Assembly: GCA_032718475.1 (NCBI GenBank)
Contig: JAUCBJ010005028.1
Coordinates: forward strand, 1-64,000
Source: Nemertoderma westbladi
Lineage: Eukaryota; Animalia; Xenacoelomorpha
Direction of reading: 5' to 3'
DNA: 64,000 bases
The position numbers and the translations under genes were made by a program. Shown here in pieces: positions 4,092-57,680 of the stretch (position 1 is the first letter of the stretch; every line of letters begins with the position of its first letter). The notes beneath the pieces were generated by a model. It worked only from the letters and a program-made list of their open reading frames with translations. It ran no database searches and was not told the origin of the DNA.

Positions 4092-5138
4092 CCAGTAATA
4101 TGGTGCTTTCCTGCTTTATAGGCGTTAATATGAATAATTCATTAACAATACAGGCATAAACAATAGGGCTATATCAACAAAACACTATAAACTAGCCTAT
4201 TCAATTAATCAAAACGCAATAAACAAATAAAGTGTACAAGTACAATATAATAATAATACTATTTGGCTATTCTTAATTCTTACATTTTCCTCATATATTT
4301 CAATTAGTTGTAGCGTAGCGTACCGGTACTGTGTTTATGTTGTGTACGATAGTTGAAATAATACAGTAATAGAATCTCCTGTGTTAGCCACCACTGACCC
4401 TCACGCATAATGCTTAGGCTTACAGGCTTAACTACTTAAAAATATTTAGTTACCTATCTTAATTATTGTTATTACATTCATTGTGGTGTGTGTGTGTGAA
4501 AAATTGAGACAGGGGGGTGTGGGGGGGAACTGGACGCAAATCCCGTCTTGGCGAATTAATATCCCGCCTGAATGTTAAATTCTCAATTTAGGGAAAAGAG
4601 CAGGCTACTGTGGCACGTTATTCTAAACAAAACAATAAACTGAAGTCAATATAGAACAAGTTACAGTTTTATTTTTGGGAGTAATCAGCTGTTATTTGCG
4701 TCGATTTTCCCCTGGAGATGGAGTACAATGACATTGACATATAGACATAAACATAAAAATAACGAAACACAACAAACAAGATTACCATTTTCATTGATAC
4801 CGTTTAGGATAGTTGGAATTTAGCTGATCCGGCATACAGGCATATGTTGATAGGGTGAGATAACGGTACCGGTACGTACGTACTACAGTACAGCAGTACC
4901 GTACCGGGTACTAAAAATCGTAAACACCTCGCTGCCTGCAGCCTGGAAACAGCTTGAAACACCTATTTTTAATGCCAGAAACATCTAGAAACACCTAGAT
5001 TTATAAAATATTGATGCAGAAAACAATGGTTCGGTATATATGTCTGTTTGTTGGGCGAAAATTCGAAATGGAACATCATAATTATTCAAATATGTCCGTT
5101 GCTATGTTAACCCGAGCGGGATTTTTAAATTGCAAAAA

Positions 5139-5223
5139 TGATATAATTCAGCCCAGCAGCAAGCACAGTTTGTTGTACCTGCTGTACAACAAACTGTGCT
5201 TGCTGCTGGGCTGAATTATATCA
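5139..5223. repeat. Perfect inverted repeat (40-bp arms, 5-nt loop), probable foldback MITE
   Basis: TGATATAATTCAGCCCAGCAGCAAGCACAGTTTGTTGTAC-ctgct-GTACAACAAACTGTGCTTGCTGCTGGGCTGAATTATATCA. Confidence 0.85.
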
Positions 5224-6108
5224 ATTGAAATACACGGATTGTAATGGTACTAGACTTAGACTACTGTATGAACGATTCCGACTAAACTCTGAAACTGCAA
5301 GCTTCACGATAAAACTTTAACTTTAATGTGAGAATTTTCTGTTAATATAAGTATAAGATTTTTCCGCGTAGGTGTAGGCTACGCGGGAACCTATGTCTAG
5401 GTTACGCGTAGGCGATGGAATGCAGTTTATCGTAAATATATTTTTCTTTCATGTGAACTGACATTCTAGACTCGTGATTGGTCCAATTATGTACACCACA
5501 ACAGGGGGAATGTTATATTATTGCATGGTGTGTATTTTCCTATTTTCTTTTTGTAAACTATAATAGTGGTATTAGGCCTATTTTGTACATTGTGCAATAC
5601 ATACAGCAATTAGCAATACAAAGTCATAGGGATACACAGATAGGTACCACATTTCGATAAATATACTTAAGGAAAAGTGCGATGATTCTTGGCTGCCCCT
5701 GCCATGGGAACCGTTTGTTGTAGAAATACAGAGCTATCCAATACTCTGGGACCAATCTTTAAAAAAACTTTAAAAACTGCCGCGCTAAGGATCAAGTTTG
5801 GGCACAACAAGCTCAAAAACTTAAAGATAAACTTGGTTGGTCATGGAGCTGGGAAGTTTTAAAGGCTAAATTGAGCAAGGGGGGTGGAATTAGGGATCGC
5901 TGCATGAAAGAGAAGGCGAAGGGAAAAAGAACTGTGAAATCAGGGACAAGTACCAAGGAAGTTTAGCGATTGGTGTTAGATGGGGCCTTGTTCTTTTCTG
6001 GGCGAAAAATTTGATCATAGGAAGACATCAGCATATATGTCCAAACACAGTGACGATCCTCACAGTTTAATTATTTATGTATTATTATAGTATTATTCAT
6101 AATTATTT

Positions 6109-22976: not shown

Positions 22977-23111
22977 GTTTGTTTGTACAGTTGAATGCCT
23001 ACTGCTATATTACAGTTAAAGCAAGTCTAGTAATTCAGTATCAACTGTTAGCCTAGTAATTAATTACCGATACTGCTACTCAGTGTAGCGTGATATATAT
23101 ATAATATATTA

Positions 23112-25237: not shown

Positions 25238-26486
25238 TGTTCGCGCTTTCAGACCTTTAGCAGTTTAACCTGCCAAATTTGGATGTCTTCTAGATAATAA
25301 ATCGAATTTAGCCTATGACGAGTATTTGATACACTACATTAGCCGAAGCCAGTCTATGCGCGACCATTCACCCGCTGGATATACCCGGGAGACTGGATTC
25401 GGAAGCCTAACCTTATTGCTGTGTAGGCCTACTGTATTATTCGACTGATCGTAATATATAATCTCTGACAAATATTATTCACTTTCGGGAAATATTAACA
25501 GTTCCTTTAGGACGTGGCGCTCTAAATATGTAAACAGAGTTATGACTTAAACTAGACACAACGGGATGGCTATGGATTCACGTATATAGCGCATTCTTTA
25601 GGAGATGCTTTGTTATCAGTCACAATCATACACACTACTGCACAATGCTGCACACCGATCTGCCGACCTTCACTAATTTTAGTCACATATAAAGAGAACA
25701 ACAACCGACTAATGTAGTGCCTATGAAATAGCATTAGATTCAATCCAAAACCACTTTAATGTAAGTCGCAATTGTTATATGTAACCGGGCTCTCTTACCT
25801 TCAGTATATCAAGAAGATTGAGGGTTTTATAATTATTTATCGATATTCCAAATATAATAATATTCCATCAACTGATATAATGAATAACCGACAGTAAATA
25901 GCAGTAAAAATGCGGTGTTTGTAGTTGACAATATGATTAGGTGAGTTATGTTATGATTGATTTGTTAAGATAACAGATATACGTTTCTATGATTAAGCCT
26001 GCTAATGTTGGGCTAAAGCCTGAAACAACAGAGATTCCAAAGCCGGTCTTCTAGGCTCGGGAAAACCAACACAACTGATCCCTCTGGGCTGTTGTAGGTA
26101 TCTTTCAACACAAAGAGAAACAGCTCTCATTGGCCGAGTTCCAGATTCTGTAGGTTCCACGAATGTCTAAATGCCGAACTATTCGGGTTTTTGCAGCCCA
26201 TATTCAACACAAGGCGAAATCGCTCTGATTGGTGGATCATTGTTCTGATTGGTTGATCGAACAGAACAAAGAGCCTATAGGCGTACAGCAAATCGGTTGG
26301 TAGATTGCGTCATTTGAGTTAGGTAGTTTAGAGTATTTGAGCACATTGTGGGAAAACTGGCTTTTTATGTCCGCTAAAGCACACATGCAGACACAGCGGA
26401 TAAATCGCTAGTTATGTCCTCTAAAAACACCTTACACAGTACATTGCGGAGAAAAGGGCCAGTTATATCCCGCAAAAGCTTTTACA
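25238..26486 (-). repeat. 5' LTR
   Basis: 1249 bp, TG...CA. CCAAT boxes on the minus strand (ATTGG on plus at about 26129, 26228 and 26248). Confidence 0.95.
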
Positions 26487-32811: not shown

Positions 32812-34243
32812 GGCACCACTGTGGAGTGGGTCACCATTTATTTTTTAATTTTATACAATTATATATTTACTATTTTTTACACACACTATAAACATTAGTT
32901 TTGTTTATTAGAATAAGTGAATTTGAAATGTTGCTTGAGTCACTGTGTAGGGAATGATTTCTTGATTAAATCGATTAAATCAGTAAATGGAGAAACTTTG
33001 TGCAGCATCCTCCAACGAAACTCGGCGAGATGGTTTTCGAGCAACAAGTTCTTCGTTCCCCTCTTTTTCCTCATGATCGTTGTTTTGGCGTGGGACCATA
33101 TTCCTTCAATCCGCTGCGTATGGGCGCCCGTGACAACGTTCACAAATCGGCCTTTGCCTTTGATACTATGGTTCACACTTTCGTGTAAATACTTGCCGCT
33201 GCCATCGAGGGCCCTCCATGGCCTTGTATTGCTAGTGATTCCCACAGTCTTACCACAGTAAGCGGCCCACTCGTCACTATGGATTAGGGTCCCTCCTTTA
33301 ACGTTGGCTTCCACTATTGGGCGTAAGGTCAGCATGTTTCGACGTTGAACATAAAACAATCGGACATCCACTTGGCCACCTGGGGATTTACATACAATTC
33401 CGAAAATCCACGGTCCATTTACCCGTTTACCATAATTCCTTGCCGATGTATTGAATTGACCGACTCGTTTATTGTAGATCTTTTTGACTCGTTTATTGTA
33501 GATCTTTCTCCTTCTTGTTACATCCCCGAGCAGCTTCCTCCCACGATTATACTTACGCTTACCGCGAAAGATCGATTCGTCGATCTGGACTGTCATCCCA
33601 ACTCCCCCCATTGGCTCAGCGTTATGCATGTCACTATTCATTAGTTCCCGAATGAAATTATGCCAATCAACGAATGTATGGTCGTTGATTCCTCCGATCA
33701 TTCCATTGAGCATCAGGTGTGCTGTGTTCAAAGTAATGTCTTGAAGAAACATAAACGTAATCCATAGAATCTGGGATACTAGTAGTTTAGATGCACCAAA
33801 CCACGTCCCGTTTCTTGCCGATAATTGGTGTCTTTGTGGCCCTTTGCAACGCCACATTAGACAAGTACCTCCGTGTTTTGTACGTCTAAAAATGTGGGCA
33901 GAGTAGCTACAACCAACATGTTTGCAAGAACTTTTACTAGTGGGTATGGGTAACAGGCCACAGGATTGTGCAAATGTTATCGCACTCCCCTCATCTTTTA
34001 AATTTTGGGAAATTTCTATAATATTTAAATCAGTGGACTGTCTCGAATATAAATGTCTTTGAATGTTTGTACTCATAATGTCAAAAAACACAAATGAATC
34101 TTTAAAATATGAAATGAATATAAACGTTCTAGAATTGTGTTGTAGTTGGAAACAATATTTAAATAAACTTAGTACACTTATAATATCGGTTAATATACAC
34201 AATAAAAAAAAATTAAAATGGTGACCCACTCCACAGTGGTGCC
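32812..34243 (-). mobile_element. Merlin (IS1016/IS1595-like) DNA transposon, apparently intact
   Basis: Perfect TIRs GGCACCACTGTGGAGTGGGTCACCATTT; 9-bp TSD AATATACTT (32803-32811, 34244-34252). Confidence 0.95.
32940..34076 (-). CDS. Merlin DDE transposase (ISXO2-like), 378 aa
   Basis: ATG at 34076. VQIDES..KRKYNRGR, WIFG, IHSDEWAAY, VNHS..FV..TGAHTQRIEGIW; N-terminal Zn-ribbon-like C..C/WRC..H. Confidence 0.93.
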   Translation of the reverse strand: MSTNIQRHLYSRQSTDLNIIEISQNLKDEGSAITFAQSCGLLPIPTSKSSCKHVGCSYSAHIFRRTKHGGTCLMWRCKGPQRHQLSARNGTWFGASKLLVSQILWITFMFLQDITLNTAHLMLNGMIGGINDHTFVDWHNFIRELMNSDMHNAEPMGGVGMTVQIDESIFRGKRKYNRGRKLLGDVTRRRKIYNKRVKKIYNKRVGQFNTSARNYGKRVNGPWIFGIVCKSPGGQVDVRLFYVQRRNMLTLRPIVEANVKGGTLIHSDEWAAYCGKTVGITSNTRPWRALDGSGKYLHESVNHSIKGKGRFVNVVTGAHTQRIEGIWSHAKTTIMRKKRGTKNLLLENHLAEFRWRMLHKVSPFTDLIDLIKKSFPTQ

Positions 34244-35754: not shown

Positions 35755-35825
35755 ACCTTCTTTCATTCACTGGGGTCGATAAAATGAGTACCTGTTGAAT
35801 TACTGGGAATAAACCTTGGGATACG
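35755..35825 (+). mobile_element. Fragment resembling the Meta-SINE central domain
   Basis: CTTTCATTCACTGGGGTCGATAAAATGAGTACC resembles the conserved CTTTCATCC..GGTCGATAAAATGAGTACC core (recalled, not searched). Confidence 0.4.
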
Positions 35826-36864
35826 AGTAGCACCACACCAGTCATACCTTCGGGTAACATTCCTGCAAAGCTAACCTAGCATTGCGAATTATCTTGCACA
35901 AAATATAATGAAAGTATTATTTATTTCAGATGTAAAATTTAGAATTAAAGGAAACTGCAGCAGTCAAGAATGAATATAAGAAGAGCGGGCTCGCAAGTAT
36001 TATTCTGGAGAGCGGCTGTAGATAATATGCAGCCGGCAGCCGCTACTATAGCCTATAAACTTTGGTTGGATGTGGGAGCAATTTGTAAATTGGGCTTTCA
36101 ATTTTTATTGCAAGTGTGCGAACAAGGACTGTGATAACGTGTAAATAAATATATTATCAAACATTCAACTAAAAGTAATTACTGCAAATGCAGAAGTTGT
36201 TTCATCGACAGTCCACCTTTTATTTCACGGTCCACTGGTAATACCGGACATCACCTTACAGAAACAACATCTCAGTTTGGGTAACCACTGCTACAGTACT
36301 TCGAAAAGGATAAACCTGCGCCATTCTGTCCATAAATGCGTCGGCCACAAAGTCCACATTCGAATTAACATATTTCCAACATATTTTCACCAGTTCTTGG
36401 GGATACATGTCTAGCGAGAGTTAGGGTGCTGACAGCATATTCCTGACAGACAGGTATGTCGGTGCATTACTTGGCCACAGTGATGAGCTCCAAATTGCAC
36501 ACCGAGCCTTGTATGTATTACAAGTTCACTACCAGTAACAGTGTTTGCCATAACACTGCAATGTTACAAAATTTATAACTCATAACTGCAAACATAATCC
36601 TTATTCCTTACATTTTTATTTTCTCGAGCTTGGTTTCTCCTTATTTATGATTGACCATTGTCTAAATAGATAAATATACCCCTGTGTGCTAATTCATTAT
36701 TGTTGCTATGTAAAAAATCTGTCGTTAAGATAAATAGTGTTCTAGAAAAAATTGCTCAATGCGGACTATGTGAAATATAACATAATTTCAAATGGTTTAT
36801 ACAAGTTAACACTTTCAGCAAAAAAAACTGCAGTCATACCCAATTTGAACGGTGGTCGGTACTG

Positions 36865-37562
36865 TCTACTTGACTATAGGCACCACCTAACTCCAGATGA
36901 CTTTTCTGAATCTGGACTACTTAACTTAGATAGTAGAGTTAAGCAGCTACGCCTTAACCATGTGCATAAAGTGTATAATGGTAAATGTCCCAATTACCTA
37001 AAACAAAAATTCAACAGAGTACGCGATACACACTCTTACAGTACCAGAGCTAGTGCTTCAAACTTCTACCTCCCGAATTGTAAATCCTTTGAATCTGATA
37101 CTTTCTTTTTTAACGGCATAAAAAATTGGAACGCTCTTCCTAATGAAATTAAAAACCTAAATAATCAACTTCTTTTAAATCTGCAGTTAAATCTCATCTC
37201 CGTGTGCAATGTAAAAATAGGTACAATAGTCCTACAGTAAGTTATTAGTTTATTAATTATTTACTATTTATACTGTAATTACGTTTTATAATAAATTGTT
37301 CTGTACATTACATCTTTATCGTTGAGTCGGGCATTGTCACGCTCTCGGTAAAGTTGTACATGTACATAGTGTAATTACGTTTTATATTGGTTTTAGGTTA
37401 GCGTAGTGTAATATTGTATTTGTAACCAAGTAACATAAAGGACCCCCTTGGAAATAAGCTGCAAAGCTTTAGGGGTAATCCTATATGTTATGTTGGACAA
37501 TACCTTTATACCGGTACATTGTTTGGTGTATTTGTTATTGTTTTTACATAATGTATAAATAA

Positions 37563-37604
<42 letters not shown>
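36865..37604 (+). mobile_element. 5'-truncated L2/Crack-type LINE 3' end with (TCTA)n tail
   Basis: HKVYNGKCPNYL..HSYSTR...WNALP C-terminus, 3' UTR stem-loop near 37440-37482, then AATAAA followed by about 10 TCTA units. Confidence 0.8.
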
Positions 37605-37847
37605 TTCTGTATTTTAGTACCGGTACCGGCACCGGTACTGCTATAGGCCTACTGTGTAGCCTACCATTTAAATACGGTAATGGTAGGCCTACCGGTTGTG
37701 CTAATAAATTTTAAATAATTGATAGGCCAAACTGGATTGCAGGATTGTGGAAAATGTGGATATACCTTTCACATAATTTAGGCCTATTACTGTATTAGTT
37801 TTATAATCAATAATGGATCATGACTACTGTCTGAGTAGTGTTACGGA

Positions 37848-38465
37848 TAACCTGCTCCTTTCCCTGATTTGGTAAAGTGACTGTTTATTGTTTTGGTTAG
37901 AAAATCCGGCCTTAACCTGCTCCTTTCCCTCAATTAGTTAAGTGATCGTTTATTGTTTTGGTTAGAAAATCCCGCCTCTGTAACCTGCTCCTTTCCCTCA
38001 ATTGGTAATGTTATCGTTTATTGTTTCTGTAACCTGCTCCTTTCTCTCAATTGGTAATGTTATCGTTTATTGTTTTGGTTAGAAAATCCCTTCTCTGTAA
38101 CCTGCTCCTTTCCCTCAATTAGTTAAGTGATCGTTTATTGTTTTGGTTAGAAAATTCCGCCTCTGTAACCTGCTCCTTTCCCTGATTTGGTAAAGTGATC
38201 GTTTATTGTTTTGGTTAGAAAAGCCCGCCTCTGTAACCTGCTCCTTTCCCTCAATAAGTTAAGTGATCGTTTATTGTTTTGGTTAGAAAATCCCGCCTCT
38301 GTAACCTGCTCCTTTCCCTCAATTAGTTAAGTGATCGTTTATTGTTTTGGTTAGAAAATCCCGTCTCTGTAACCTGCTCCTTTCCCTGAATTGGTAAAGT
38401 GACTGTTTATTGTTTTGGTTAGAAAACTCGGCCTTGACCTGCTCCTTTCCATCAATTGGTAATTG
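37848..38465. repeat. 68-bp tandem repeat, about 9 copies
   Basis: Unit TAACCTGCTCCTTTCCCTCAATTAGTTAAGTGATCGTTTATTGTTTTGGTTAGAAAATCCCGCCTCTG; for example, starts at 38234 and 38302. Confidence 0.95.
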
Positions 38466-38814
38466 TTTTTGGCTATAAAATGAGTGTTTTGCTACGTCAT
38501 GTGGTAATCGATTATCGACAACAACCACGAACTATTAAATTTAGAGTCTTTTACCACAGGCGCATATGGAAATCTATCTCATAGTCTATAAATCATGGAA
38601 TCATGGAATGTTTTGACACAGGCATAGTGAAATCAACTGTCTGACAGTCCAGAAATCAGCAGTCTGACAGTTTGAAGAAATACATACATAAAAAGTCATT
38701 AAAAGGACAATAAAAGTCATTAAAAGGACAACAAAAGTCATTATGCATAATTCCTAAAAAAAAATGACAAAAAAAGTCAAATAAAAGGACATAAAAAATC
38801 ACTGCCCTTTTAAT

Positions 38815-38847
<33 letters not shown>

Positions 38848-38977
38848 TCCTACCAACCAATACATAACCGCGACATCTACCACCCAAGGGGCGGAAGGGT
38901 AGCATAAACTTATTTCCAATCACACGTTCAATATGCGAAGCCATGTGGTTTATAGGAAATATCGAGAATTCGAGAAA

Positions 38978-39292
38978 ATCGAGAATACGAGAAACTCGAT
39001 CGAAATACCTGCTCATCCCAGTATCCGTCCGTAGTCACCGGACAGCTGCGGTTTATTCCCGTAGAACAGTAGAATTCCCGCAGCTTCAGACCCAATTCGA
39101 CAACAACGAATTCGCCTCACACTTTCGCGTGGCAGAGAACGTAATCCGGTGCGATACACGTCTGCCCAACTTTCAACAATTTCCCCCAGGCGATCCCAGG
39201 ATCCGGCTGTCCGGGCCGCCTCTAAACCCAAATCGCAATCCTCGTCGATTCGTCCAGTCGTCGACGTAAGTCGGACTCTTCCCACCGCACTC
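38978..39292 (-). pseudogene. Aldehyde dehydrogenase family 3 (ALDH3-like) gene fragment
   Basis: After removing five 8-bp insertions it reads [47 protein letters not shown]...DYGR, the ALDH3 active-site region (ELGGKSP; GQTCIAPDY). One internal stop. Confidence 0.88.
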
Positions 39293-43329: not shown

Positions 43330-45990
43330 TCAACACTAATAAAACCGAATAATAAGTGTTCATAGCGCCACTTTTACATGGCATCATGACTAAATTAGAA
43401 TATATTTTAATATGATTTCTAGAAACATTTATATATAATAAATTCTATCAGTGCCTATATTTTATATTACATTTCAGTTCTACAATAAGAACTCGTTGTC
43501 CGTTGTGCTCCTTGCCGAAAAGTGAAGGCCTCTGTTCATATGTGTGGATTGTACTTGAAACAATAAACCCGGCGCACCATCCAGAGATTTGGTATCCTCT
43601 GCAGTTAGATCCCAGTATGGGCTCCCATATAAGCTTCTACCATATAGGTTCTACTGCTGCTCTAAATAGTCGAAACTAAAGTTTCCGACGTAACCTACGT
43701 GACTTCCAAATCCTACACAGCATTCAATGCTGCCCATGAATTCTCGTTATATATCCGAAGGGTATGTATCAGAGGCGTAGCGAGCCCTTCTGGTGCCCGG
43801 GGGAATGAAGCCGAGATAGCCCCCCCCCCCCCCCCCCCTCCCCTCAATAATTTTAACTTTTCATTTATGACGGTTTTTTTAATATTATATATATATAACA
43901 GTATATACTATATCAAATCCTGAAATCTATTATACACAAGTTTGATATAGTGTAATTATAATATATTGTATGGCGAGCGAAGCAGGCTGAGAAAATTTTT
44001 ACATTTTTGGCTTATGACACATGTCCTGTATATACAGTACTGTATCACAATCCCTGACTTTTTACTGATTTGTCCTATTTTTACAAGAATACCCTGACAT
44101 TTACCTGGCATTTCCGCGACCCTGGGTGAGTGCGCTCGGGGGAACTTCCCCACCCTCGCTACGCCTCTGGTATGTAAGGGTACATTCAGCTGACTTCCGG
44201 ATCCATGAACCAAAGTAGCAGAAGCCATCCACATGCTCAACAGCTCAAGCACACCACCCTTAGAGCTAATGGTGGTCATACATTCAGACATTTTCTGAGG
44301 ACTGTCTAAGTTAACTGTGAAAATTTTGGTGTTCTTGGAGTTAACAAATACAGTAGACCAAGACTACAGTAGAATCAGCCCTAAAACAAAGATGCGTAGA
44401 ACATAGAGGACTATGTTCTACGCATGTCCTGTCCAAAGATTATCATAATGATGATGGGGTGATGGTATCTCCACCTATTGACTCCAGAAGTCGAGGAAAT
44501 CCTGCCAAGTACCTAACTTTGCTGATAACTTGGGAGTACTCTCAGAATCACTAGAGGGAGCCCATTCATTAGAACAGGCTGCTTTTAGTGTGGGTCTTTT
44601 TATTAACTCCAAAAAGATCAAAATTTTGACAGTTAACTTTGAAAGTCCTCAGCAAGTCTCCGATCGGATGAGCATAAGCTCAAAAGATGGTATGCTTGAG
44701 CATGTGGATGACTTCTGTTACCTGGGATCATGGATCCGAAGTCAGGTGAGGACCTTCGAATACGTAAGGGAAAGGCATGGGCAGCCTTGAATGGGCTTTC
44801 CAGTATTTGGAAGTAACACAGGATTCATCGGAAACTTAAGGTCCGATTATTTAGAGCAGCAGTAGTTCCAGTACTCCTCTATGGGAGGGAGTCCATGCTA
44901 GGCTCTAACTGCTGAGGACACCAAATCTCTGGATGGCACATTCACAACAATGCTACGTCGGGTTCGCTGTCTCAAGTACATTGCACACATATCCACCCAG
45001 ACATTATATAACATTGGAGGACTCTCATTGGTTCCCAAAGCTTGACACTAGAATAAAGCCGCCTCCGCTTTGCAGGACATTGTTTTCGACATGAGGACCA
45101 GCCTGGGCACAATCTTGTGCTTTGGCAGCCCCATGGAGAATATAATTATGATGGACAGTCAATCACTTTCGCGAGACGCCTCTTAAAGAACACTGGCCTT
45201 GAAGATGCGGATAATCTCGCGAAAGTAGTGAAGAAAGTTGTGGCGGTACAACTTTGTTGATAAGCCGGCATAGCATTCTTAATGCACTTGGCATTGGGCT
45301 TGCCAATTGTGGATTGATTCATTCAAATCATTTCAAATCAAAGACATTTTTATTATAGCATCGGGGCGGGAAACTCCAGTTCTAAATCAAGTTGCTTAAT
45401 TGTGGATTGATTGCATGGTGGTGACAAAATGTTTTTTCAAGCTGGCATAGCATCTCAATTTGCGGTTTCATGGCAGCAGGCCCGATTATACTGTATGTAG
45501 TAGTAGTATAGTAGTAGGATTCAATCATATATTATTGCCACACTAAATATTCGACTTTCCAACTTATCCTACTTGACTTCCAAATCCTGGAATGCTGCCC
45601 ATGCATTCCCCTTATATATCTGAAGGGTATGTAAGGGCACATTCAGCTGACTTCCGGATCCATGAACCTAAGTAGCAGAAGCCATCCACATGCTCAATCA
45701 GATAACCCTTAGAGCTTATGGTCATAAGTTCAGACATTTTCTGAGGACTGTCTCAGTTAACTGTGAATATTTTGGTCTTCTTGGAGTTAACAAAAATAGA
45801 ATCAGCCTGTTCTAATGAGCTGAGGAACCGGTGGGCTCCCTCTAGTGATTCTGAGAGTACTTCTAGGTCATCAGCAAAGTCTAGACCAGTTAGGTACTCA
45901 CGTGACTGGATTTCCTCGACTTCTGGATCCAATTAGGGGTGCTACTGTACAATGACACCTGTCCAATAATGCCACAATGAATCGGATACG
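43330..45990. mobile_element. Cluster of three RTE-clade LINE fragments (minus about 43330-44350, plus about 44420-45260, minus about 45530-45990)
   Basis: The plus copy reads FADNLGVLSESLEGA...VGLFINSKK...HVDDFCYLGSWIRS...RLRFAGHCFR. The other two pieces are reverse-complement homologues. Confidence 0.8.
43770..44169. mobile_element. hAT-type MITE inserted in an RTE remnant
   Basis: CAGAGGCGTAGCGAG...CTCGCTACGCCTCTG; 8-bp TSD GTATGTAT/GTATGTAA; internal poly-C. Confidence 0.8.
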
Positions 45991-46909
45991 ATATTTTTGA
46001 GTGCCAAATTCATAATCAGCATCCCAGAAAACCTCTTATGTCATAAAATCAGGTTGATTGGGTAATGAATTTTGATTATCCAATTTGTGCTTAATTGTCT
46101 TTTTCGCGCCACACATATACAAAAAATGTCCTACTCAATAAAGTACGATATATTTCAGTGTCATATTCGTGATCAGCGCTACAATAAATAAGTCATAAAA
46201 TAAGTTTTACTTGGAGTTGATTTTTCATTATCATATTAGCACTTCTTGTTTACTTCGTGCCCCAGGGGGCACATCAAAATTATCAGAAATTTCCTCGAAT
46301 GTTATATCTGAGTTCTATAATCGTGTGACGTGATCAGCACCCAAAAACTGCTAAGCTATATAACGCGAATAAATTTATTTTAGATAGCCATAAAAACTTT
46401 TGAAAAGTTTAGCACGAAAATAATTAGAGAAGGGTGCAAGAAAGGGGCCACAGCACGGAAACTAACATAGCTATTTTTAATTGGCATTTGGTCTGATTAA
46501 ATTTTAGGAAGTCACGAAATCTCGGTTTTCACAGACAAACCTGGCTCAAAGATACAGATGAATTACAAAACAAATATAAAATGATCCCCCGCCCTGGGCC
46601 AAATAGGGTTAAGGTAAGGAAAATTGCTTTTGCTTTGATAGGAGACAAGATCACGAGATTGAGAAGTAGAAATATCGAAACCAAACCAGCTAAATTGACG
46701 TAGAGAAAATACACAGTTTGCAGTCCCCACATGGCAGTTTGTCAGAACACATACGGTAGCGGCAGGCAAAATAGTGAACTGAAGTATAAAACGCATGGAT
46801 AACACGTGTTAAATCGCTTCCTAACCACATATAATTTTAGTACAGTTACCGACCAGCGAGTTATCTCAATCAACTTTCCATAGATCGCAGTTATTGAAAT
46901 TTGTCAATC

Positions 46910-47005
46910 ACTGATTGGACCACATACATTTGAATTATATTGTTGGAAATCCGTCATTGGCTGAATAATTGAGATTGTTGCTAAGCTCTAAATCTATTGG
47001 GCCAG
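46910..47005 (-). promoter_or_regulatory. ER-stress-element-like / CCAAT cluster upstream of BiP
   Basis: GTTGG-N9-ATTGG at 46942-46960 (CCAAT-N9-CCAAC on minus); ATTGGACCACA at about 46914 resembles ERSE-II; a further ATTGG at about 46996. Confidence 0.4.
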
Positions 47006-48419
47006 CACAATACTGGCTTGCTAGCTACACGGTTGCGTTGCTCATGTTATGTCATTCTGTCATTTCTGTTGGCTAGTAGGGGTGTTTGAAATGAGAATGA
47101 GGATTTTGGTGATATAGCAGATAGGCTCACGCTCACGGCAATACGGTAGCGGTAGGCCTACCGGCTGACCGGTTCCGTACAGTTTGAATCTTATATACGG
47201 TACCGGCTGACCGGTACTCTGGCATCACTGTAATGCGCCAGCGCCATCTTACATACCGTAGCAATCATGCATAGCTGCATAGCAGCTTACCGCAGCCCAG
47301 ATACAATCTGACAATTGAGCATTGTTATGCGTGTTACCGGTACTGTCTGACTGTGTTATAGCAGGCCTACTGACTAACTGCAGAACTGGCTAACTGATAG
47401 TCCTGTGCCTGTCAGCCTGTAGTTAGGCCCCTAGCACCTACTGACCTAGCAGCCTAGTGGCTTGTGCGTGCGCGTGCTTACCTAGCTTAATGTGTAATGT
47501 TAGTGATATTGGACTTTTCTCCTGTCAGCCTGTTCTGTTCTCTTGCTTCTTGCGGTGCAATCTTGTTAGCTGTAGCTTGCTGGCTTGAGTAGGTCCAGAG
47601 CCAGATGTCAGTCTCAGTCAGTCAGTGACACAGTGAGTAGGGCAGGGCCTGGCCTAGGTCGGTAGGTATGACCTAAGTCTGTAAGTGTTACGGCTGTTCC
47701 TGTTACTAGTGTGACTGTGACGCAGGTTTCAGGTAGGTAGGGCATAGCACATAGGGTAGAGCTACCAACATATCAAGATCATTGTGCAACTGGGCAGCTG
47801 GGCAAAGCCACCCAGCTAGCTAGAAACGAACGCCGGCCTGACCGCCGATCGATGCCGTTCACCGTTCTGCCGTTAATACTGTAATAACGTACCGCGTTGA
47901 GTATCGGAATCGCCGGAATTTCTTTACACAAGCCAATTTAGCTACCGCACCCTTGGCCCAGCATAGCAGGTACCCGGTACCTACCGTTTTACTGCTCCAA
48001 CGTATTTCAGCTCTAATCTGTCTGCCGGTTTGCGTCTGTGCGTAGGCCAGTCTGCCAGTACAGCAGTAGGCGTACGCAAGTAGGTTTTGCTCTCACTCCA
48101 TGATAATAAACTGATAGGTCTAATCACTTTAACTTTGATTTGATTGTTCTTTTTATTTAATTGATACCGAAAGTTCTTTTACTTTGATAATTTCAAAGTG
48201 GTAGCCAGTAGCCTAGCCACGGCGTCGGTCTGTCAGTACGTTTATGTACCTCTACAGACAGGCCACGATCGAATCGGTTGCATGGTGAAAACAGTCGGAC
48301 AGTGTGGCGAACTCACGATCTTGATCTTCTAACCTTCAAGCTTCGACCTTGACATTTATAGTAATTAGGTTTCCTGGAAGTAAGCCAAACTGGAGTTAAG
48401 TCACGCTACACGTTCTTGC

Positions 48420-48785
48420 TTGTCATTGGTCTGTTAGTTAAATGACCAGCCCCCCCCCCCCCCCCCCCACTCCCTTTCCTGCTTGGCTCCATTTTGTTAA
48501 TTCAGATCAGCCGTTTGATTACTGGCTGACTGGTGATTACTGATTGGTTGGTTATCCTAATACCACATTACTCATTCCCATTGGTTGAAGGCTGCTGCTT
48601 CACAGCTACACACACGTGACACATGACACATAGGGAGGAATGATGTAATAATATTGCAATATTATCAACCTTAAACACCTGTAACCTAGCTATTGGTCCG
48701 TGTGGCTGTGTGGTACTACAACTACCCCGTGCTATTACCACGTCGCATATAGTATACGGTATAATAGCTGATTTTGTCACTTTCA
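48420..48785 (+). promoter_or_regulatory. Probable BiP proximal promoter
   Basis: Several inverted CCAAT boxes (about 48425, 48543, 48579, 48692), ACTGG-N9-ATTGG at 48529-48547, CCACGT at about 48738 and an Inr-like TCACTT at about 48777. Confidence 0.45.
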
Positions 48786-49081
48786 AGAATTCAATATTTT
48801 TAGACTACCGGTAGCCGAATACTATATGTTATTTAAATATATATGCTATAAAGTTGTATTTCAAGTAAATATAGCCATCCTTTACTCCTATTTTTTAGAA
48901 ATTCGTTTATAAAAAAAACTAAAGTGAATAACTCGTACGGTTATATACAAACTCAGTTTAAGTTTGGATGAATTGCTACCTACTGTGTACTGACTGACTG
49001 GTTACATTAACTCGAGAATCGAATCGCCCAAGTCATTGAGCTGTTCTTCGACCACCTATTTGTAATTCTTTCATATCCTAA

Positions 49082-49444
<363 letters not shown>

Positions 49445-49823
49445 TAAGTAGAAGTAAATGTCATGCACAACCATAACAAAGTGTTGAGTTTTACAAATGT
49501 GGTCTTAGCGCCCACTCACACGCTCAAGAAAATAACAAAGAAGTTTCTGACTTCATCACACAGTTAATTTTCCATGAGACTTTAGTTTCGTGATGTTGTT
49601 GGTTGTGTCTACTGTCCAGCAACTTAATTGCTGACACCCCCACCCCCCCCCCCCCCTCACCTCTCCCTCCCTCCCTCACACGAGGTACTTTTGTTTGAGA
49701 CCCAAGTTTTAGCAACAAAAGGGGGGGGGGGGGGGCAAAATATGGGCCTAGAGTGATGTATAAGTCTAGAGTTGGTCTAGAAAATTTAACTTGGTGTTGA
49801 ATTAATTTATTTTATTTTCCCAG

Positions 49824-49967
49824 GAAGGTGAGCGATTAGTTGGAGACGCGGCTAAAAACCAACTGACTGGAAACCCAGAGAACACCGTCTACGATGTAAA
49901 GCGACTCATCGGTAGAAATTGGGACGATTCATCCGTACAGAAGGACATTAAAACCTTCCCGTTCTCA
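49824..49967 (+). CDS. HSPA5: BiP coding exon 2
   Basis: cccag|[48 protein letters not shown]|gttagt (phase 0). Confidence 0.95.
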
Positions 49968-50345
49968 GTTAGTTACCTTCCCGTTCTCAGTTAGTTACCT
50001 TCCCGTTCTCAGTTTGTTACCTTCCCGTTCTCAGTTAGTTACCTTCCCGTTCTCAGTTAGTTACCTTCCCGTTCTCAGTTAGTTACCTTCCCGTTCTCAA
50101 GTTAGTTACCTTCCCGTTCCCAGTTAGTTAGTTACCTTCCCCTTCCCGTTCTCCGTTAGTTACCTTCCCCTTCCCGTTCTCCGTTAGTTACCTTCCCGTT
50201 CTCAGTTAGTTACCTTCCCGTTCTCAGTTAGTTAGTTATCTTCCCGTTCTCAGTTAGTTACCTTCCCGTTCTCAGTTAGTTACCTTCCCGTTCTCAAGTT
50301 AGTTACCTTCCCGTTCTCAGTTAGTTACATTCCCGTTCTCAGTTA
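49953..50345 (+). repeat. 22-bp minisatellite (left part) whose first unit spans the exon 2 donor
   Basis: Unit ACCTTCCCGTTCTCAGTTAGTT, about 17 copies. Confidence 0.95.
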
Positions 50346-51639
50346 CACTGAAAAAAGTATCTGCCTGTTTTTTTAAAACATCCACTTCCGATATAAAACG
50401 AGCTGTTCGTAATTTTATAAGTGCCACTTATTTTTTTCATCAACTTAAATAAAAAAAATAAAATAGAAAAATTTTGATTTCTGCAAAAGTGCCTGTTATA
50501 TATTTAAAGTTGATGTTATAATATTCTGACGCATGATGAATGAAGTGGCAGTTATGATTTAAACTAGCTGTTTAAATGGAAGCGGCACTTTTTTTGATAA
50601 GTGATACTTATATGTTTCAAATTCATGTTTATTTAATAAAAATAAAGTGACTGTTTATATTTGTAAACTGGGCCTTTAAAAAATAAACTATACTTTGTCA
50701 AATAAGTAGCACTTTTGGAGGTTTGAGATTGGAAACTGCCACTTTATTTTTATTGGAGGTTTGAGATTGGAAACTGCCACTTTATTTTTATTCAACTTAA
50801 CTGCCAGTTTAGTAAGAAAATCGCCAATTTTAAATAAGAAGATGCACTTTTGTTAGAAGTGGCAGTTAAATACATGTCCTGCTTATTCAAATTTAGAGAC
50901 AGGGGGAAACTGGACGCAAATTCCATCTTGGCGAATTGATATATTGAGTGTCATTTTGGCAAAAGAAATGCCATTTATAAATAAGAAGAGGTACTTTTAC
51001 TAGAAGTGATAGTGAAATACATCAGTCATTCTTATTAATAAAAAAAACACACATATTTTGGTAAATGTATTTCTTGTGTATGTATCTGTCTTAGATTAAT
51101 ATTGGGTTTGATATGGAAAGCGGAATTTTATTTCTTTGATTGGCTTCTTGTGAATAAATGGCCAATAAACAGTAAATTTATTATTTCGATTTAATATTTC
51201 TATTAATATGGGAAATGATTTAAAAACGGCCACTTTATTTATATAAAAATGAGTTTGTTTACAAAAAACAACTTCAACCAATATTAGCCTTAATAGCGCC
51301 CTTATTTTGCCCATATATGGTAGGATGATAATTCTTCATTTTGATTGGTTGGTTGGTTCTTAAAGAGAGAGCCTTCTGCCCAGTCAGTTAATAGCTTACC
51401 GGTAGTGTATAAGGCAGGAAAGGCCTGTATGAGGTGACAGTACTGCAGTACTGCATCACACACAGTACAGCAGTACCGGTAATACACTGTAATATGGTAC
51501 AGTTATCAGAGGCAATACTGCAATAGGCTATCGGTACCGGACCATCTTGCATACATCACAGCATACGGAGGGGATCTACTATCTAGGCCTATACACCCCC
51601 ACCAACCCTAATACTGTCATATGATAGTGTCTGACAGTA

Positions 51640-53553
51640 TCAGAGTGTACTGGTCTGCCCGCTGTCGCCTGCAGGTACGATTGTATGTGTACCAAGGTGT
51701 ACTAAATAAACTGGAGGTTTACAGACTCTGGGTTTAACAACTTTATGAGTAATAACCCGCGGTTTGCTACCCATAAATCCAAATAATACAGACATTTTCG
51801 ATAAAAATAAAAGACTTGGATGGTCTACCCTATCAATAACTTTACGATCTAAATCGTTGAAGCGAATTGCCTCGAAAGTTGTTTTAACATTAACAACCTT
51901 CCACCACTTTAGAACAATTTCTATAAATAAAGCAGTATCCGCGGTGGTAGAAGATAGACTGAGAATACGCAGCGCAGCTACTGTCTTCTCGTTGAATACA
52001 CGCAGGCACAGTTTGACATTTTGTCGCTGTATTGAAGTCGGCCAAACCGAATCGTGATTAAGTTTTGTAAGTTTCAACAAGTTGGTTTTCTCAGCATTAA
52101 ATAGTAGAACAATATCTGACCAACAGGCACATCGAGTTGTTTTTGAAACATCATCAGGATCAAAAAATTCAAGTTTCTGTAATTTTTCCGTTATCCAGTT
52201 ATTTCTAATCAATTTAAGGAGATGCACGGTATCCTTCAGGTGTAATAACGGGGTTGGCGGGGATCGTCCAACCGGAATAGGAAAATCGTGCGCAAACTTA
52301 CGATTCACATTAGTGTTGTCAGTAATAGTTGCCAATACAATACCCCCAAATTCTTCGATCGAATTAATGGCATTCTTTACAACGGTCACTTGGAATGCAG
52401 AATCTAGCGAATTAATTGGTATCATTTTTACAACAAACTTGATGTTCGTGAACAAAAACTTCACCATGAGACACAAAAGAGTCTTCGCCATTTCGTCGGG
52501 TTTGTCAAGAGCCTTGCCGTAAACCTCTCCACTGTGGTAGGTCAATTGTTCACTAACATAGACTTCATCGATTAATATAATTGAGTACTTTGATCGAGGT
52601 TGAAGTTTCGCTAACATTGATTTAATGTAATCGTTTTGAGGGACATTGCTCACCATAGAAGTTAGCGCTTGCAGGGTGCGTATTGACGGCAGTTGTAGCA
52701 AGTCTCTCAATTCAATGTATAATCGACGAGATTTAGAATACAAGTGAAACGCGGTAATTAAATCATACCTCGAATAAATTCGACGATTTTTCGGAATATT
52801 AAGTAATTCTATTTGATGAAGGATAAAGTTCCATTTGGAACGATTAGTTTCATCATCTTCTTTCTCTTCCTGGTCATGTTTAATAAATCGTATGAGTTCC
52901 TCAAGCTCACTCCACATAAGGATATTTCGAATAAATGGATGTATAACCTTCCTTAATCCATAGAAACATCTGAGATTGGCAGATTCTATATTTGTAGCTG
53001 TAGGTAAAGCATTCAAGTGGAGAGACCATAAGGCATAGGGGGTATCAAGGTTTCTTTCTATACTAGATATATAAAATACGTCGTCATGTAATGTAATATC
53101 GGCAACGTCAGAGTAGCGCTTGGAAAACTCACCCAAGAATGTGGGGAATGTAATTGAATCGCGTTGTTTAAACTCAAGCATTTCATCTACCCCAGGAGAC
53201 CGCACTTCGACTGTAGTCTTTGTAGAACTTGGTCGGGGAGGCGGTGGTGGCGTGGGTATGCAGGTTGGCGGAACGTTCGGAAATATGCTGGGAGGATGTA
53301 TCGGCACTCTGGATCCCCCCTGCACGCCTTTAGTTTCTACACCAGGCGGCCAATGCACTGAACAGATTCCCATATTTTTTGTAACATCTTCTGGCTTAAC
53401 GATATTCGGTAGGCGTTGCAACCAGGCTTGCAATGCAAGTGGATCAGTTGGAAAGCGATATATTGGAATTTTTGTCTCCCCTGCTCCTAGAGTTCCATCC
53501 TTGAGTTTATCGTATCCAGTTCGGCAACCTCCAACACTACATTTCCTCGGCAT
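51640..53553 (-). CDS. THAP-domain P-element/THAP9-like transposase, C-terminally truncated
   Basis: MPRKCSVGGC...FP...W...ICSVHW (THAP); LPSIRTL; LIDEVYV; ITDN; DTVHLLKLIRNNW. No third-catalytic-Glu segment; the ORF reads through the TIR to a stop in the flank. Confidence 0.88.
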   Translation of the reverse strand: MPRKCSVGGCRTGYDKLKDGTLGAGETKIPIYRFPTDPLALQAWLQRLPNIVKPEDVTKNMGICSVHWPPGVETKGVQGGSRVPIHPPSIFPNVPPTCIPTPPPPPRPSSTKTTVEVRSPGVDEMLEFKQRDSITFPTFLGEFSKRYSDVADITLHDDVFYISSIERNLDTPYALWSLHLNALPTATNIESANLRCFYGLRKVIHPFIRNILMWSELEELIRFIKHDQEEKEDDETNRSKWNFILHQIELLNIPKNRRIYSRYDLITAFHLYSKSRRLYIELRDLLQLPSIRTLQALTSMVSNVPQNDYIKSMLAKLQPRSKYSIILIDEVYVSEQLTYHSGEVYGKALDKPDEMAKTLLCLMVKFLFTNIKFVVKMIPINSLDSAFQVTVVKNAINSIEEFGGIVLATITDNTNVNRKFAHDFPIPVGRSPPTPLLHLKDTVHLLKLIRNNWITEKLQKLEFFDPDDVSKTTRCACWSDIVLLFNAEKTNLLKLTKLNHDSVWPTSIQRQNVKLCLRVFNEKTVAALRILSLSSTTADTALFIEIVLKWWKVVNVKTTFEAIRFNDLDRKVIDRVDHPSLLFLSKMSVLFGFMGSKPRVITHKVVKPRVCKPPVYLVHLGTHTIVPAGDSGQTSTL

Positions 53554-54041
53554 ATTCAATATCAACTCGGCCTTATACAATTATACAAATTGCGACAACC
53601 AGAATACAGGAATACAGCAATATCAGAATTTACTTTAAGGCAGCTAGCTATTCAATAAGCCATGCCTACTTTCGGCCTACCCACCCCGTACCCGCTAACC
53701 TGTCTACTTTATGACTTTATTAATTAGCTAATTAGCCGCAGAACTGTTAGGCTAGGCCTATTGCTGTAATGAAACAGTAAAAGCCAGAAAGCTGAAATTC
53801 ATTATACTGTTATATCAGCAACAGGTGCCTGACTGCCTGAGTACCGGTACTGTTATACACAACAGCGCAAACTGGTACAGAGAGAGCACTGCCTGAGTGC
53901 TGCACTAGCTGATGCGTAATTTTAGTAATCTTGTGTGATTTAAAATCTTAGGTATACACACTCCCACTTTAATAAAAATGTTCAGCCTCCAATAATTGGA
54001 GGCCAATTCTCGCTGCATGACCTGTTATTTAGTACACCTTG
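51693..54041 (-). mobile_element. P-element-family transposon (internally deleted), nested
   Basis: 17-bp TIRs CAAGGTGTACTAAATAA; 8-bp TSD ATGTGTAC (51685-51692, 54042-54049). Confidence 0.93.
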
Positions 54042-54254
54042 ATGTGTACACACCTGTAACAGTGCAACAGTAACATGCATGCCCCATTACAGCATTACTG
54101 CATTAGAGACCTACATCATTACTCTACAGCTCGAGGACTAGGCCTACTCTACGCACCGTACTGTCAGACTGTAGTTGTAGTACCAGTATGCAGTAGGGCA
54201 GTTAGGCTGTGAGTGCAGTAAGGCAGTAAGGTGGAAGTTAGGAAGTTCATTCAT

Positions 54255-54681
54255 ATGATTCATTCGAGTTCTGAGGAGTCAGACGATGAGTCTGGAGATG
54301 GGATCTCCTCCTCTGATGCTGAGAACGAGCAACGCGGATCTGATTCATCTGATGATCTCTCTCCGGAAGATTCGTCTGCAGAGAACGATAGCGGGTCCCT
54401 TGTTTGGGCGAAAATGTCGAAGCAGGATAACCCATGGCCAGCGCATATACTGGTATAGTCGCGCCTAACGCACATTTTCCTAAACCCACTAAAGGGAAAT
54501 TTGGGGGCGAATACAAATATGTATACTTTTACGGAACCAAAAATTTTTCATGGGTGAAGAATACCCCGGAATATATTCTCCCTTATATTGAGTATAAAGA
54601 CAAGTTCTCTGTGCGGAAGGCCAATATCCCCGTAATGCCAATTTTATATTGGCACTAGGCGAAATACAAAACAATGAATAA
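54255..54681 (+). pseudogene. Acidic N-terminus plus PWWP-domain gene, two frameshifts, carried inside the CACTG element
   Basis: GSLVWAKM..PWPA / IVAPN..YVYFYGTKNFSWV..ILPY..YKDKF / NFILALGEI*. AATAAA at about 54755. Confidence 0.8.
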
Positions 54682-55499
54682 TTATCATTGATTTTTAGGT
54701 GAACAACAAATGTATATCGTTGTTTAAAGTACCTACCATTACCGATACAGCTACAATAAAGTTATAGGGTATATATATTATATATATATATACGGTTATA
54801 TATATATACCTTATAATATATACCTACCCATTACTGTACCATCAACAGGTTTTTAAACAATATTTTTTATTTGTATAATAATTTCAATTATTTTTTGCCA
54901 GTATTATATATTTTTAATTATTTTTTTTATTTATATTTGTACCTATATTATACATCTATATCGTCTTATTTTTATATTTTCTAAATTGAATCATAAGCCA
55001 TTTTGAAACCCATTAGGCCATTTCGTGCTCATGTGCTCATTTCGTGCTCATGTGCTCATTTCGTGCCCTTGATTAGTATAGTTTACCTCTATAACGGGGG
55101 ATATATATAAATTGCCAGTGAGTTTGTTTTTGCTGCTCATATAAATGGGAGGAGTTCAGGTTATTAAACAACGATATATATATATCTACATAAATATAGT
55201 GCTACTTGATTGTGTTTAATTATGTTGTGTTTCTTCCATAGCTGTTTTCTATAGCATTTGTGTTTCCATAGGTAATTTGAAATCTGCATATGTTCAATCT
55301 TTCTATAATAAAACTGCCCAACGTCTGTGAAAAAAGTCTGTGTTATTGTGTTTAATTATGTCACCTATATAATTGTGTTGTGTTTCCATAGCTGTTTTCT
55401 ACAGCATTTGTGTTTCCACAGGTGTTTTCTATAGCATAGGTAATTTGATATGTGCATATGTTCAATCTTTCTATAATCAAACTGCCAAACGTCTGTGAA

Positions 55500-57010
55500 A
55501 AAAGTCTGTGTTATTCAAGAAAAATGCCATTTTTTATATTCAAACTGCCACTTTTATTCAAGCAACATGCATTCTTTTATCAAACAAGAGGATCTCGTCC
55601 AAATAGAAAGTCCGTGTTATTCAAGAAAAATGCCATTTTTTATATTAAACTGCCACTTTTATTCAAGCAACAGGCATTCTTTTATCAAACAAGAGGATCT
55701 CGTCCAAATAGAAAGTCCGTGTTATTCAAGAAAAATGCCATTTTTTATATTAAACTGCCACTTTTATTCAAGCAACATGCATTCTTTTATCAAACAAGAG
55801 GATCTCGTCCAAATAGAAAGTCCGTGTTATTCAAGAAAAATGCCATTTTTTATATTAAACTGCCACTTTTATTCAAGCAACAGGCATTCTTTTATCAAAC
55901 AAGAGGATCTCGTCCAAATAGAAAGTCCGTGTTATTCAAGAAAAATGCCATTTTTTTATATTAAACTGCCACTTTTATTCAAGCAACATGCATTCTTTTA
56001 TCAAACAAGAGGATCTCGTCCAAATAGAAAGTCCGTGTTATTCAAGAAAAATGCCATTTTTTATATTAAACTGCCACTTTTATTCAAGCAACAGGCATTC
56101 TTTTATCAAACAAGAGGATCTCGTCCAAATAGCAAGTCCGTGTTATTCAAGAAAAATGCCATTTTTTATATTAAACTGCCACTTTTATTCAAGCAACAGG
56201 CATTCTTTTATCAAACAAGAGGATCTCGTCCAAATAGAAAGTCCGTGTTATTCAAGAAAAATGCCATTTTTTTTATATTAAACTGCCACTTTTATTCAAG
56301 CAACATGCATTCTTTTATCAAACAAGAGGATCTCGTCCAAATAGAAAGTCCGTGTTATTCAAGAAAAATGCCATTTTTTATATTAAACTGCCACTTTTAT
56401 TCAAGCAACAGGCATTCTTTTATCAAACAAGAGGATCTCGTCCAAATAGAAAGTCCGTGTTATTCAAGAAAAATGCCGTTTTTTTTTATATTAAACTGCC
56501 ACTTTTATTCAAGCAACAGGCATTCTTTTATCAAACAAGAGGATCTCGTCCAAATAGAAAGTCCGTGTTATTCAAGAAAAATGCCGTTTTTTTTTATATT
56601 AAACTGCCACTTTTATTCAAGCAACAGGCATTCTTTTATCAAACAAGAGGATCTCGTCCAAATAGCAAGTCCGTGTTATTCAAGAAAAATGCCATTTTTT
56701 ATATTAAACTGCCACTTTTATTCAAGCAACAGGCATTCTTTTATCAAACAAGAGGATCTCGTCCAAATAGAAAGTCCGTGTTATTCAAGAAAAATGCCGT
56801 TTTTTTTTATATTAAACTGCCACTTTTATTCAAGCAACATGCATTCTTTTATCAAACAAGAGGATCTCGTCCAAATAGAAAGTCTGTGTTATTCAAGAAA
56901 AATGCCATTTTTTATATTAAACTGCCACTTTTATTCAAGCAACTTGCATTCTTTTATCAAACAAGAGGATCTCGTCCAAATAGAAAGTCCGTGTTATTCA
57001 AGAAAAAGGC
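55500..57010. repeat. 105-bp satellite (5 x 21-bp subunits), about 14 copies
   Basis: AAACTGCCACTTTTATTCAAG... starts at 55542, 55647 and so on; the long ORFs over it are artefacts. Confidence 0.95.
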
Positions 57011-57209
57011 CATCTTATAAAAATTAAACAACCACTTATTAATTTTATAACTGCAGGTTTGATAAGCCTAATAAGTGTTAGTTTATTTGAAATTTTTTAA
57101 CCGCAGGTTTTCCAAAAAAGCGCCTCGTTCTGGTGTTGCACTTTAAGCGCAACTTTTTTGGAAAACCGGTGGTTTTTTAGTAAAAAAACGCCAGTTACTT
57201 CTTTCAGTG

Positions 57210-57680
57210 TAGTTACCTTCCCGTTCTCAGTTAGTTAGTTACCTCCCCCTTCCCGTTCTCAGATAGTTACCTTCCCGTTCTCAGTTAGTTAGTTACCTTC
57301 CCCTTCCCGTTCTCAGTTAGTTACCTTCCCGTTCTCAGTTAGTTAGTTACCTTCCCGTTCTCAGTTAGTTACATTCCCGTTCTCAGTTAGTTACCTTCCC
57401 GTTCTCAGTTAGTTAGTTACCTTCCCGTTCTCAGATAGTTACCTTCCCGTTCTCAGTTAGTTAGTTACCTTCCCCTTCCCGTTCTCAGTTAGTTACCTTC
57501 CCGTTCTCAGTTAGTTAGTTACCTTCCCGTTCTCAGTTAGTTACCTTCCCGTTCTCAGTTAGTTACCTTCCCGTTCTCAAGTAGTTAGTTACCTTCCCGT
57601 TCTCAGTTAGTTACCTTCCCGTTCTCAGTTAGTTAGTTACCTTCCCCTTCCCGTTTTCAGTTATAGTTACCTTTCCGTTT
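57210..57680 (+). repeat. 22-bp minisatellite (right part)
   Basis: Same unit as 49953-50345, about 19 copies, ending about 30 bp before the exon 3 acceptor. Confidence 0.95.

Follow-up and report, generated by a model that had tools for sequence, protein, structure and literature searches.

The BiP locus and its 5′ region

The window analysed here is the whole stretch of 64,000 nucleotides from contig JAUCBJ010005028.1 of the xenacoelomorph Nemertoderma westbladi. It carries on its plus strand a BiP/HSP70 gene, identified by PF00012, whose first two coding exons lie at 49148-49375 and 49824-49967, as judged by the Pfam match, the translation and a GT..AG joint in the contigs of sample X4, which were read as RNA from their spliced joints. 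A probable non-coding upstream exon on the same strand (47179..47229) is joined to position 49084, with a GT at 47230 and an AG at 49082-49083; this exon is tentative, as it is based on one X4 contig with 27 letters on the short side of the joint. The main X4 contig for BiP starts at the splice acceptor at 49084, and the contigs reaching further upstream are of much lower depth. Trans-splicing of a leader, or additional exons further upstream, could account for this drop in depth. Another peculiarity of the gene is a 22-bp tandem array in intron 2 (49953-50345 and 57204-57680), which is composed of the terminal part of exon 2 together with its splice donor, offers many potential donors and is split by a 6.9-kb element.

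The subject of this report is the region from 47050 to 48715, whose end is separated from the BiP start codon (49148) by approximately 430 bases; it lies upstream of BiP, as stated in a preliminary description of this DNA. It probably surrounds the upstream BiP exon, which contains one of the motifs described below (at 47202), and fills a 5′-UTR intron, though this placement is as tentative as the single contig that defines the exon. Apart from a 28-bp likeness, the region is not a dispersed repeat.

Duplicated 5-mers around CAG or CTG

The region is packed with sites at which a five-base word stands on both sides of CAG or CTG (N5-CWG-N5), here called scars. All 17 examples reported in the preliminary description are present at their coordinates, and it had overlooked four more that are not microsatellites (ACAAT at 47303, ACCTA at 47436, TAAGT at 47674 and TAATA at 47874), such that the hotspot contains 21; an additional motif, TCAGT at 47614, is microsatellite-like and is kept outside this number. 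Shuffled versions of the hotspot, 500 for each k-mer order with 2-, 3- or 4-mers preserved, contain on average 0.07-0.12 such motifs and at most 1-2. When all 93 CAG or CTG words of the hotspot are considered, the flanks are duplicated over 5 bp in 21 cases, over 4 bp in two and over 6 bp in none. Seen from the side of the duplications, CAG or CTG is the filler in 15 of the 18 whose register is unambiguous (a match of exactly five bases and a gap of three).

The same signal is found beyond the hotspot. Positions 1-56000 of the window contain 52 scars as compared to 2.55 (maximum 6) in 40 block shuffles, a count that omits two matches in a satellite as well as four microsatellite-like ones, and approximately 2-3 of the window-wide matches are expected by chance. 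The match at 44280 was rejected as a scar, because alignment of paralogs showed it to be a chance match that came about through substitutions. The enrichment of CAG and CTG over other trinucleotide fillers holds after modelling of composition by shuffles, both in the hotspot and in the window. The fillers are evenly represented among the 52 (25 CAG, 27 CTG), and the split in the hotspot of 15 CTG to 6 CAG is not a significant strand bias (p=0.08). By contrast to the fillers, the 5-mers are diverse, with 41 different ones (strand-merged) among the 52 scars. Scars with one mismatch number 7 versus 2.1 (maximum 8) in shuffles, which alone is not significant.

Shorter relatives of the scars are also in excess in the hotspot. 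There are 12 cases of N5-C/G-N5 (period 6) versus a shuffle mean of 0.97, and seven with a dinucleotide filler (period 7; CA, TG, CG, AG or CT) versus 0.57, the mean for CWG fillers in this comparison being 0.14. Duplications without filler (N5-N5, period 5) display a weak excess (6 versus 1.47, maximum 5), and for periods 9-11 with longer end-type fillers there was none. The forms N5-C/G-N5 and N5-CA/TG-N5 fit trimmed overhangs.

Several scars are nested, and after they are peeled off in silico, the number of N5-CWG-N5 motifs in the hotspot rises to 23. Summed over all scars and corrected for chance, scar lengths account for an estimated 317 of the 1,750 bases of the region (18%, about a sixth). 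A simulation with 45 events, the 5-mer preference described below and the mix of fillers yielded 21.6 perfect scars and 2.8 double hits, as compared to 21 and 3 observed, and so no special re-targeting is needed to account for the same-site double scars in the hotspot. Two further double scars on one 5-mer (N5-G/C-N5-CWG-N5) are found at 4412-4430 and 25051-25069. Both lie outside the dense hotspot, where chance re-hits are less likely, and they may hint at same-site reinsertion.

A symmetric preference within the 5-mer

The preliminary description had regarded the duplicated 5-mer as weakly specific. This view must be revised, since the 5-mers follow a palindromic preference, H-M-N-K-D, which is two-fold symmetric about the middle base. 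Position 2 is A or C in 45 of the 52, position 4 is G or T in 44, and 38 have both, as compared to a background of 26% (p=3e-12); furthermore, G is seldom found at the first and C seldom at the last position. The bases flanking the duplicated 5-mers show no preference. Such a symmetric preference is what is expected of a dimeric enzyme that cuts with a five-base stagger.

Clusters of scars at gene 5′ ends

Scars cluster at the 5′ ends of genes and avoid open reading frames: 45 of the 52 fall within 4,360 bp of clusters, whose bounds were drawn after seeing the data, and only one lies in the 9,985 bp of ORFs. Besides the BiP hotspot, five scars (4359..5296) are found upstream of an HDAC8-like gene on the minus strand (ORFs at 2505-4115; an exon of this gene has a best protein-database identity of 56%). 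Two groups, three scars at 37602-37797 and four in a GC-rich patch at 39062..39262, have no gene start assigned to them, and the clusters from 37602 to 39262 thus stand without a demonstrated gene start. Four scars (53602..53840) lie upstream of the start of a P-type transposase and are invariant among the compared copies of this young family, and another four (54085..54231) lie upstream of a PWWP-like ORF; both of these clusters lie within a transposon that is located in intron 2 of BiP. Yet another four (51438..51525) are situated inside the CACTG-ended element, to the left of the P insertion.

Empty, filled and nested alleles

Contigs from three samples were aligned to 46600-49940, of which X2 and X3 represent one sample. 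Among the 12 of 38 indels listed, four are CWG-scar units (+8, −8, −14 and −16 relative to the window); the others are two shorter scars (6 and 5 bases), a 4-base duplication (TACC, which is polymorphic) and five single bases. The 8-bp presence/absence polymorphism asked about in the preliminary description therefore exists, with units present as well as units absent when other haplotypes are compared with the window. At 47342..47354, the window has ACTGT-CTG-ACTGT, whereas X1, X2 and X3 lack 8 bases and have a single ACTGT. At 47402..47420, two scars have formed on one target (CCTGT-G-CCTGT-CAG-CCTGT), and the same contigs lack 14 bases and carry a single CCTGT. The reverse is seen at 46691..46695, where the window has an empty TAAAT target and X2 and X3 have TAAAT-CAG-TAAAT; here, TAAATCAG is inserted behind 46690 to give a scar. 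The shorter forms behave likewise, with 6 bases of GCGTG-C-GCGTG (47466..47476) absent from the X1, X2 and X3 contigs, and 5 bases of the filler-less duplication AGGGC-AGGGC (47639..47648) absent from the same three, which have a single AGGGC.

One site carries three nested scars (48043..48068). X1, X2 and X3 lack 16 bases at 48048 and have the oldest scar alone, TAGGC-CAG-TAGGC, and it is this allele that the third round of in-silico peeling had predicted. The CAGTA target of the nested scar at 48056 spans the CAG of an older scar.

In a multi-copy region, one of five indels is an 8-base scar. It is located at 54085, where the window reads CATTA-CAG-CATTA-CTG-CATTA, with both fillers on one 5-mer, and where one 8-base unit is missing in the X2 and X3 copies. 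Finally, CTCAA-CAG-CTCAA at 44236..44248 lies in a dispersed repeat, and two paralogs are without the 8 bases, which polarises this scar as an insertion; it is the one scar polarised by an outgroup-type comparison of this kind. Exact loss of 8 bp between the 5-bp repeats could be the source of some empty alleles, but not of the scars.

The empty alleles at 47342, 47402, 46690 and 44236 carry a single copy of the target and no CWG, which means that the filler is brought in and is non-templated rather than copied from the target. That each event adds 8 bp, as the preliminary description had it, agrees with the exact 8-base units that are absent or present between haplotypes. At least four of the 21 hotspot scars are missing from other haplotypes, though these diverge by substitutions at merely 1.2-1.3% (19 in 1,540 and 25 in 1,813 aligned letters), and scars absent from haplotypes this little diverged speak for recent activity. 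Over all indels, gap letters exceed substitutions approximately four- to five-fold (95 versus 19 in X2, 107 versus 25 in X3). The doubled 5-mers around CAG or CTG thus are real, inherited, polymorphic and recently formed 8-base insertions.

Search for the source element

The preliminary description proposed an element with CAG...CTG ends and a 5-bp target-site duplication. No such element was found: CAG..CTG or CTG..CAG ends with a 5-bp duplication occur just as chance-level pairs within the 64-kb window, and the best pair of terminal inverted repeats (35792-37017, 10-bp match) was dismissed because one end lies inside an ORF. From a scar, CAG...CTG ends cannot be told apart from CTG...CAG ends, and no convincing case of a longer footprint that would reveal the inverted repeat was seen in the window. 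Neither the 24 of 160 loose contig ends listed for the 46600-49940 alignment nor the 24 of 94 listed for the multi-copy region have a CAG/CTG-type terminus, and no resident element of this kind was seen in the window or in approximately five other haplotypes. Pfam scans covering 86 window ORFs detected no DD(34-ish)E/D transposase of the Tc1/mariner type; the one of 77 out of 101 further ORFs revealed no other transposase, the remaining 24 being omitted because they overlap ORFs already scanned or BiP. Exact-pattern scans of metagenome contigs gave 0 matches.

Of the transposons residing in the window, five were considered as the source and discarded. The transposases encoded there come from elements whose duplications are 8 or 9 bp long. 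The P-type element (51693-54041) has an 8-bp duplication, and the clusters contain no N8-CAA/TTG-N8; the hAT-type MITE (43770-44169) is CAG-ended but has an 8-bp duplication, which was confirmed by an empty site in a paralog; the Merlin/IS1595-type element (32812-34243) has a 9-bp duplication and the CACTG element (50346-57209) a TA duplication; and the BEL-type LTR element (13999-26486) has a 5-bp duplication but TG..CA ends.

Comparison with known transposition systems

The length of the target duplication and the chemistry of donor cleavage are treated as hallmarks of transposon superfamilies. Sleeping Beauty is described as nicking the non-transferred strand three bases inside the element and the other strand at the tip (PMC7827188, PMC7351741, PMC5224488). 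This leaves 3-base overhangs on the flanks, and once these have been end-joined, the two copies of TA are separated by cag or ctg. The scars resemble this outcome in Sleeping Beauty and Tc1/mariner elements in that a duplicated target is joined by three bases, CAG or CTG. They differ in the target, which is TA in Tc1/mariner and a variable 5-mer here; only three of the 52 scars can be re-read as the TA type.

In duplication length, the scars are like hAT5, a group of hAT elements with 5-bp duplications within the Blackjack lineage (PMC12730594), and hAT ends are reported to have G as the third base, which is compatible with CAG (PMC1131882). However, characterised hAT enzymes are described as forming a hairpin on the flank and leaving palindromic bases complementary to the flank, as well as deletions (PMC3499496). 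The filler seen here is independent of the target, unlike such a footprint, though this expectation comes from TcBuster and not from an hAT5 element. The suggestion in the preliminary description that an hAT5-type element might be responsible thus stands as regards the 5-bp duplication, and is at odds with the chemistry of characterised hAT elements, with their flank-derived bases (PMC3499496).

Transib and the CMCT clade likewise have 5-bp duplications, with CA..TG ends across the clade and reported targets of cCASTGg and cCAWTGc (PMC1131882, PMC12730594). Since their second base is A and their fourth is T, these targets fall within H-M-N-K-D, which is broader than CAnTG. However, the third terminal base is C in the Transib ends and RSSs described in these sources, as compared to G in the CAG/CTG filler, and CAC and GTG occur as fillers at k=5 in the clusters once and not at all, respectively. 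Cleavage of the RAG type proceeds via a hairpin (PMC7827188), and no element bases are therefore expected at a Transib-type donor site. NuwaI of the PHIS superfamily (PMC4482050) also features the trinucleotide CWG. There, however, CWG is the duplicated target, while in our scars it is single, is missing from the empty alleles and is flanked by the 5-mer that is duplicated instead. The CAA ends and 8-bp duplication of the P-type copy in the window are absent from the scars.

In the papers covered, no described superfamily combines a 5-bp duplication with three leftover terminal bases; PMC5753468, PMC9587614 and PMC6004678 added nothing on a footprint of 5-mer plus CWG. The preliminary description knew of no described element with such a footprint, and the full-text searches likewise brought up no description of it, though Repbase Reports, subscription journals and supplements may contain a matching family. 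Transposon excision footprints as such are already known; it is the 5+3 geometry and the density in a housekeeping promoter that are not in the literature searched.

A model for scar formation and its alternatives

The preliminary description had read the motifs as footprints of cut-and-paste excision, and both tests run here, for filler enrichment and for 8-bp polymorphism, support it. We consider it highly probable that N5-CWG-N5 motifs were left behind when a cut-and-paste DNA transposon excised, even though the element was not found. The transposase would insert at H-M-N-K-D sites with a five-base stagger and thereby duplicate them. Upon excision, it would cut one strand at each end at a point three bases into the element, such that each flank would keep a three-base overhang. 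End joining would then form a C-G and a G-C pair, and the mismatch between them would be resolved as CAG or CTG; alternatively, the overhang might be trimmed to CA/TG, to C/G or to nothing. The three filler bases would hence derive from the element ends. In this way, a donor chemistry like that of Sleeping Beauty, combined with a five-base target stagger, could yield every form seen. A hairpin on the flank would lead to the identical product if it were opened following an internal nick in the element, and the scars therefore fix the position of the nick, but not whether a hairpin is formed. The events are presumed to take place repeatedly in the germline, in promoter and 5′-intron DNA that would be accessible, with new scars landing in old ones, and by our simulation about 45 of them would build the hotspot.

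The bases of such a footprint could in principle have other origins. Replication slippage or generic repair duplications, i.e., cryptic simple sequence in a region rich in CAG and CTG, would be in keeping with the plain 5- and 4-bp duplications in the region, one of which (TACC) is polymorphic, and with the modest enrichment of period-5 events. However, slippage does not predict a constant filler between so many different 5-mers, a CWG that is missing from the empty alleles, an enrichment limited to k=5, or CAG and CTG on one target as at 54085, and we regard this explanation as largely refuted and very improbable. We give even less credence to footprints of an ordinary CAG-ended hAT element with an 8-bp duplication, which would exchange three bases of the flank for three from its termini and likewise yield a net gain of 8, although a CAG-ended MITE of the hAT type with such a duplication is present in the window (43770-44169). 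The canonical hAT consensus for the 8-bp target is nTnnnnAn, and the duplication of the MITE itself fits it, but the scars do not: it predicts that the 5-mer has A as its fourth or T as its second base, which holds for 6 and 5 of the 52, respectively, and the observed preference is centred symmetrically on the middle base. Moreover, the hAT footprints described in PMC3499496 are complementary to the flank.

The lack of a resident element in the window and in the other haplotypes would be explained if breaks with a five-base stagger arose in open chromatin, through abortive integration or through a nuclease of the host or of domesticated origin, and CWG was added without any resident element. 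Yet a fixed trinucleotide that is nearly complementary to itself, and that occurs in both orientations and in trimmed forms, calls for a donor end, and we know of no host activity that adds such a trinucleotide. We therefore deem this route improbable, though somewhat less so than slippage. The missing elements as well as the promoter location would also be accounted for if elements limited to the germline were removed from the soma in a programmed way, or if the motifs formed a regulatory code under selection; in our estimate, this is as improbable as slippage. Against it speak the truly empty alleles and the diversity of the 5-mers. Somatic excision is further disfavoured because an older CAG forms part of the CAGTA target at 48056, meaning that the older scar predates the next insertion, and because shared scars have no A/T difference at their centres among the 40 of 47 substitutions listed.

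Within the footprint reading, the identity of the enzyme can be apportioned only roughly. An hAT5-like enzyme is a possible but doubtful candidate, on a par with some other or unrecognised type, and a CMCT/Transib-like enzyme and a Tc1/IS630-like one with a wider stagger are each rather less likely than these. The most far-reaching version of our proposal, for which we would put the chances at a little below even, is that of a new transposase that unites a Transib/RAG-like five-base stagger with Sleeping Beauty-like internal cleavage, is active in the germline now, homes to promoters as a mutator and has written about a sixth of the BiP 5′ region, with the result that indels contribute more variation there than substitutions. 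If three element bases stay behind together with a 5-bp duplication, either a new lineage is to be expected or an hAT5- or Transib-type enzyme whose chemistry departs from what is known. The scars would further represent a source of regulatory variation that is invisible to repeat annotation, and a fossil map of the sites at which germline DNA was open to entry of the element.

Other repeats in the window

The transposons of the window deserve mention in their own right. The CACTG element (50346-57209) has CACTG...CAGTG ends, a PWWP-like ORF (a weak Pfam match) and a 105-bp internal satellite. It resembles elements of the CMCT clade with TA duplications, and no transposase of its own was identified. 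The P-type element (51693-54041), with THAP and P-like RNase H domains, has inserted into the CACTG element at its scar hotspot. Its ORF extends beyond the right end of the P-type element, which thus appears internally deleted, and the depth of the contigs points to a young, multi-copy family in which the terminus is far more numerous. The Merlin/IS1595-type element has an open frame of 436 codons with one N5-CAG-N5 at 32976. The BEL/Pao-type LTR element (13999-26486) is located between exons of an EcKL-like gene and has 1,249-bp LTRs that are 99.3% identical; a reverse transcriptase was not found in its ORFs by Pfam.

Near-perfect palindromes are present at 1002-1097 (96 bp) and 5136-5226 (91 bp), the former being flanked by a CAGTA direct repeat, and a fold-back structure of 5.6 kb (7356-12991) consists of long nested inverted arms with smaller hairpin elements within. 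Furthermore, some scar-like words are over-represented in positions 1-54000 of the window, namely TACCGGTA (21 versus 1.2 expected), TAGGCCTA (13 versus 0.8) and TACTAGCTA (9 versus 0.6), as is TACAGTA/TACTGTA (53 versus 16.8). Several TA-targeting families may thus leave footprints in the window, too.
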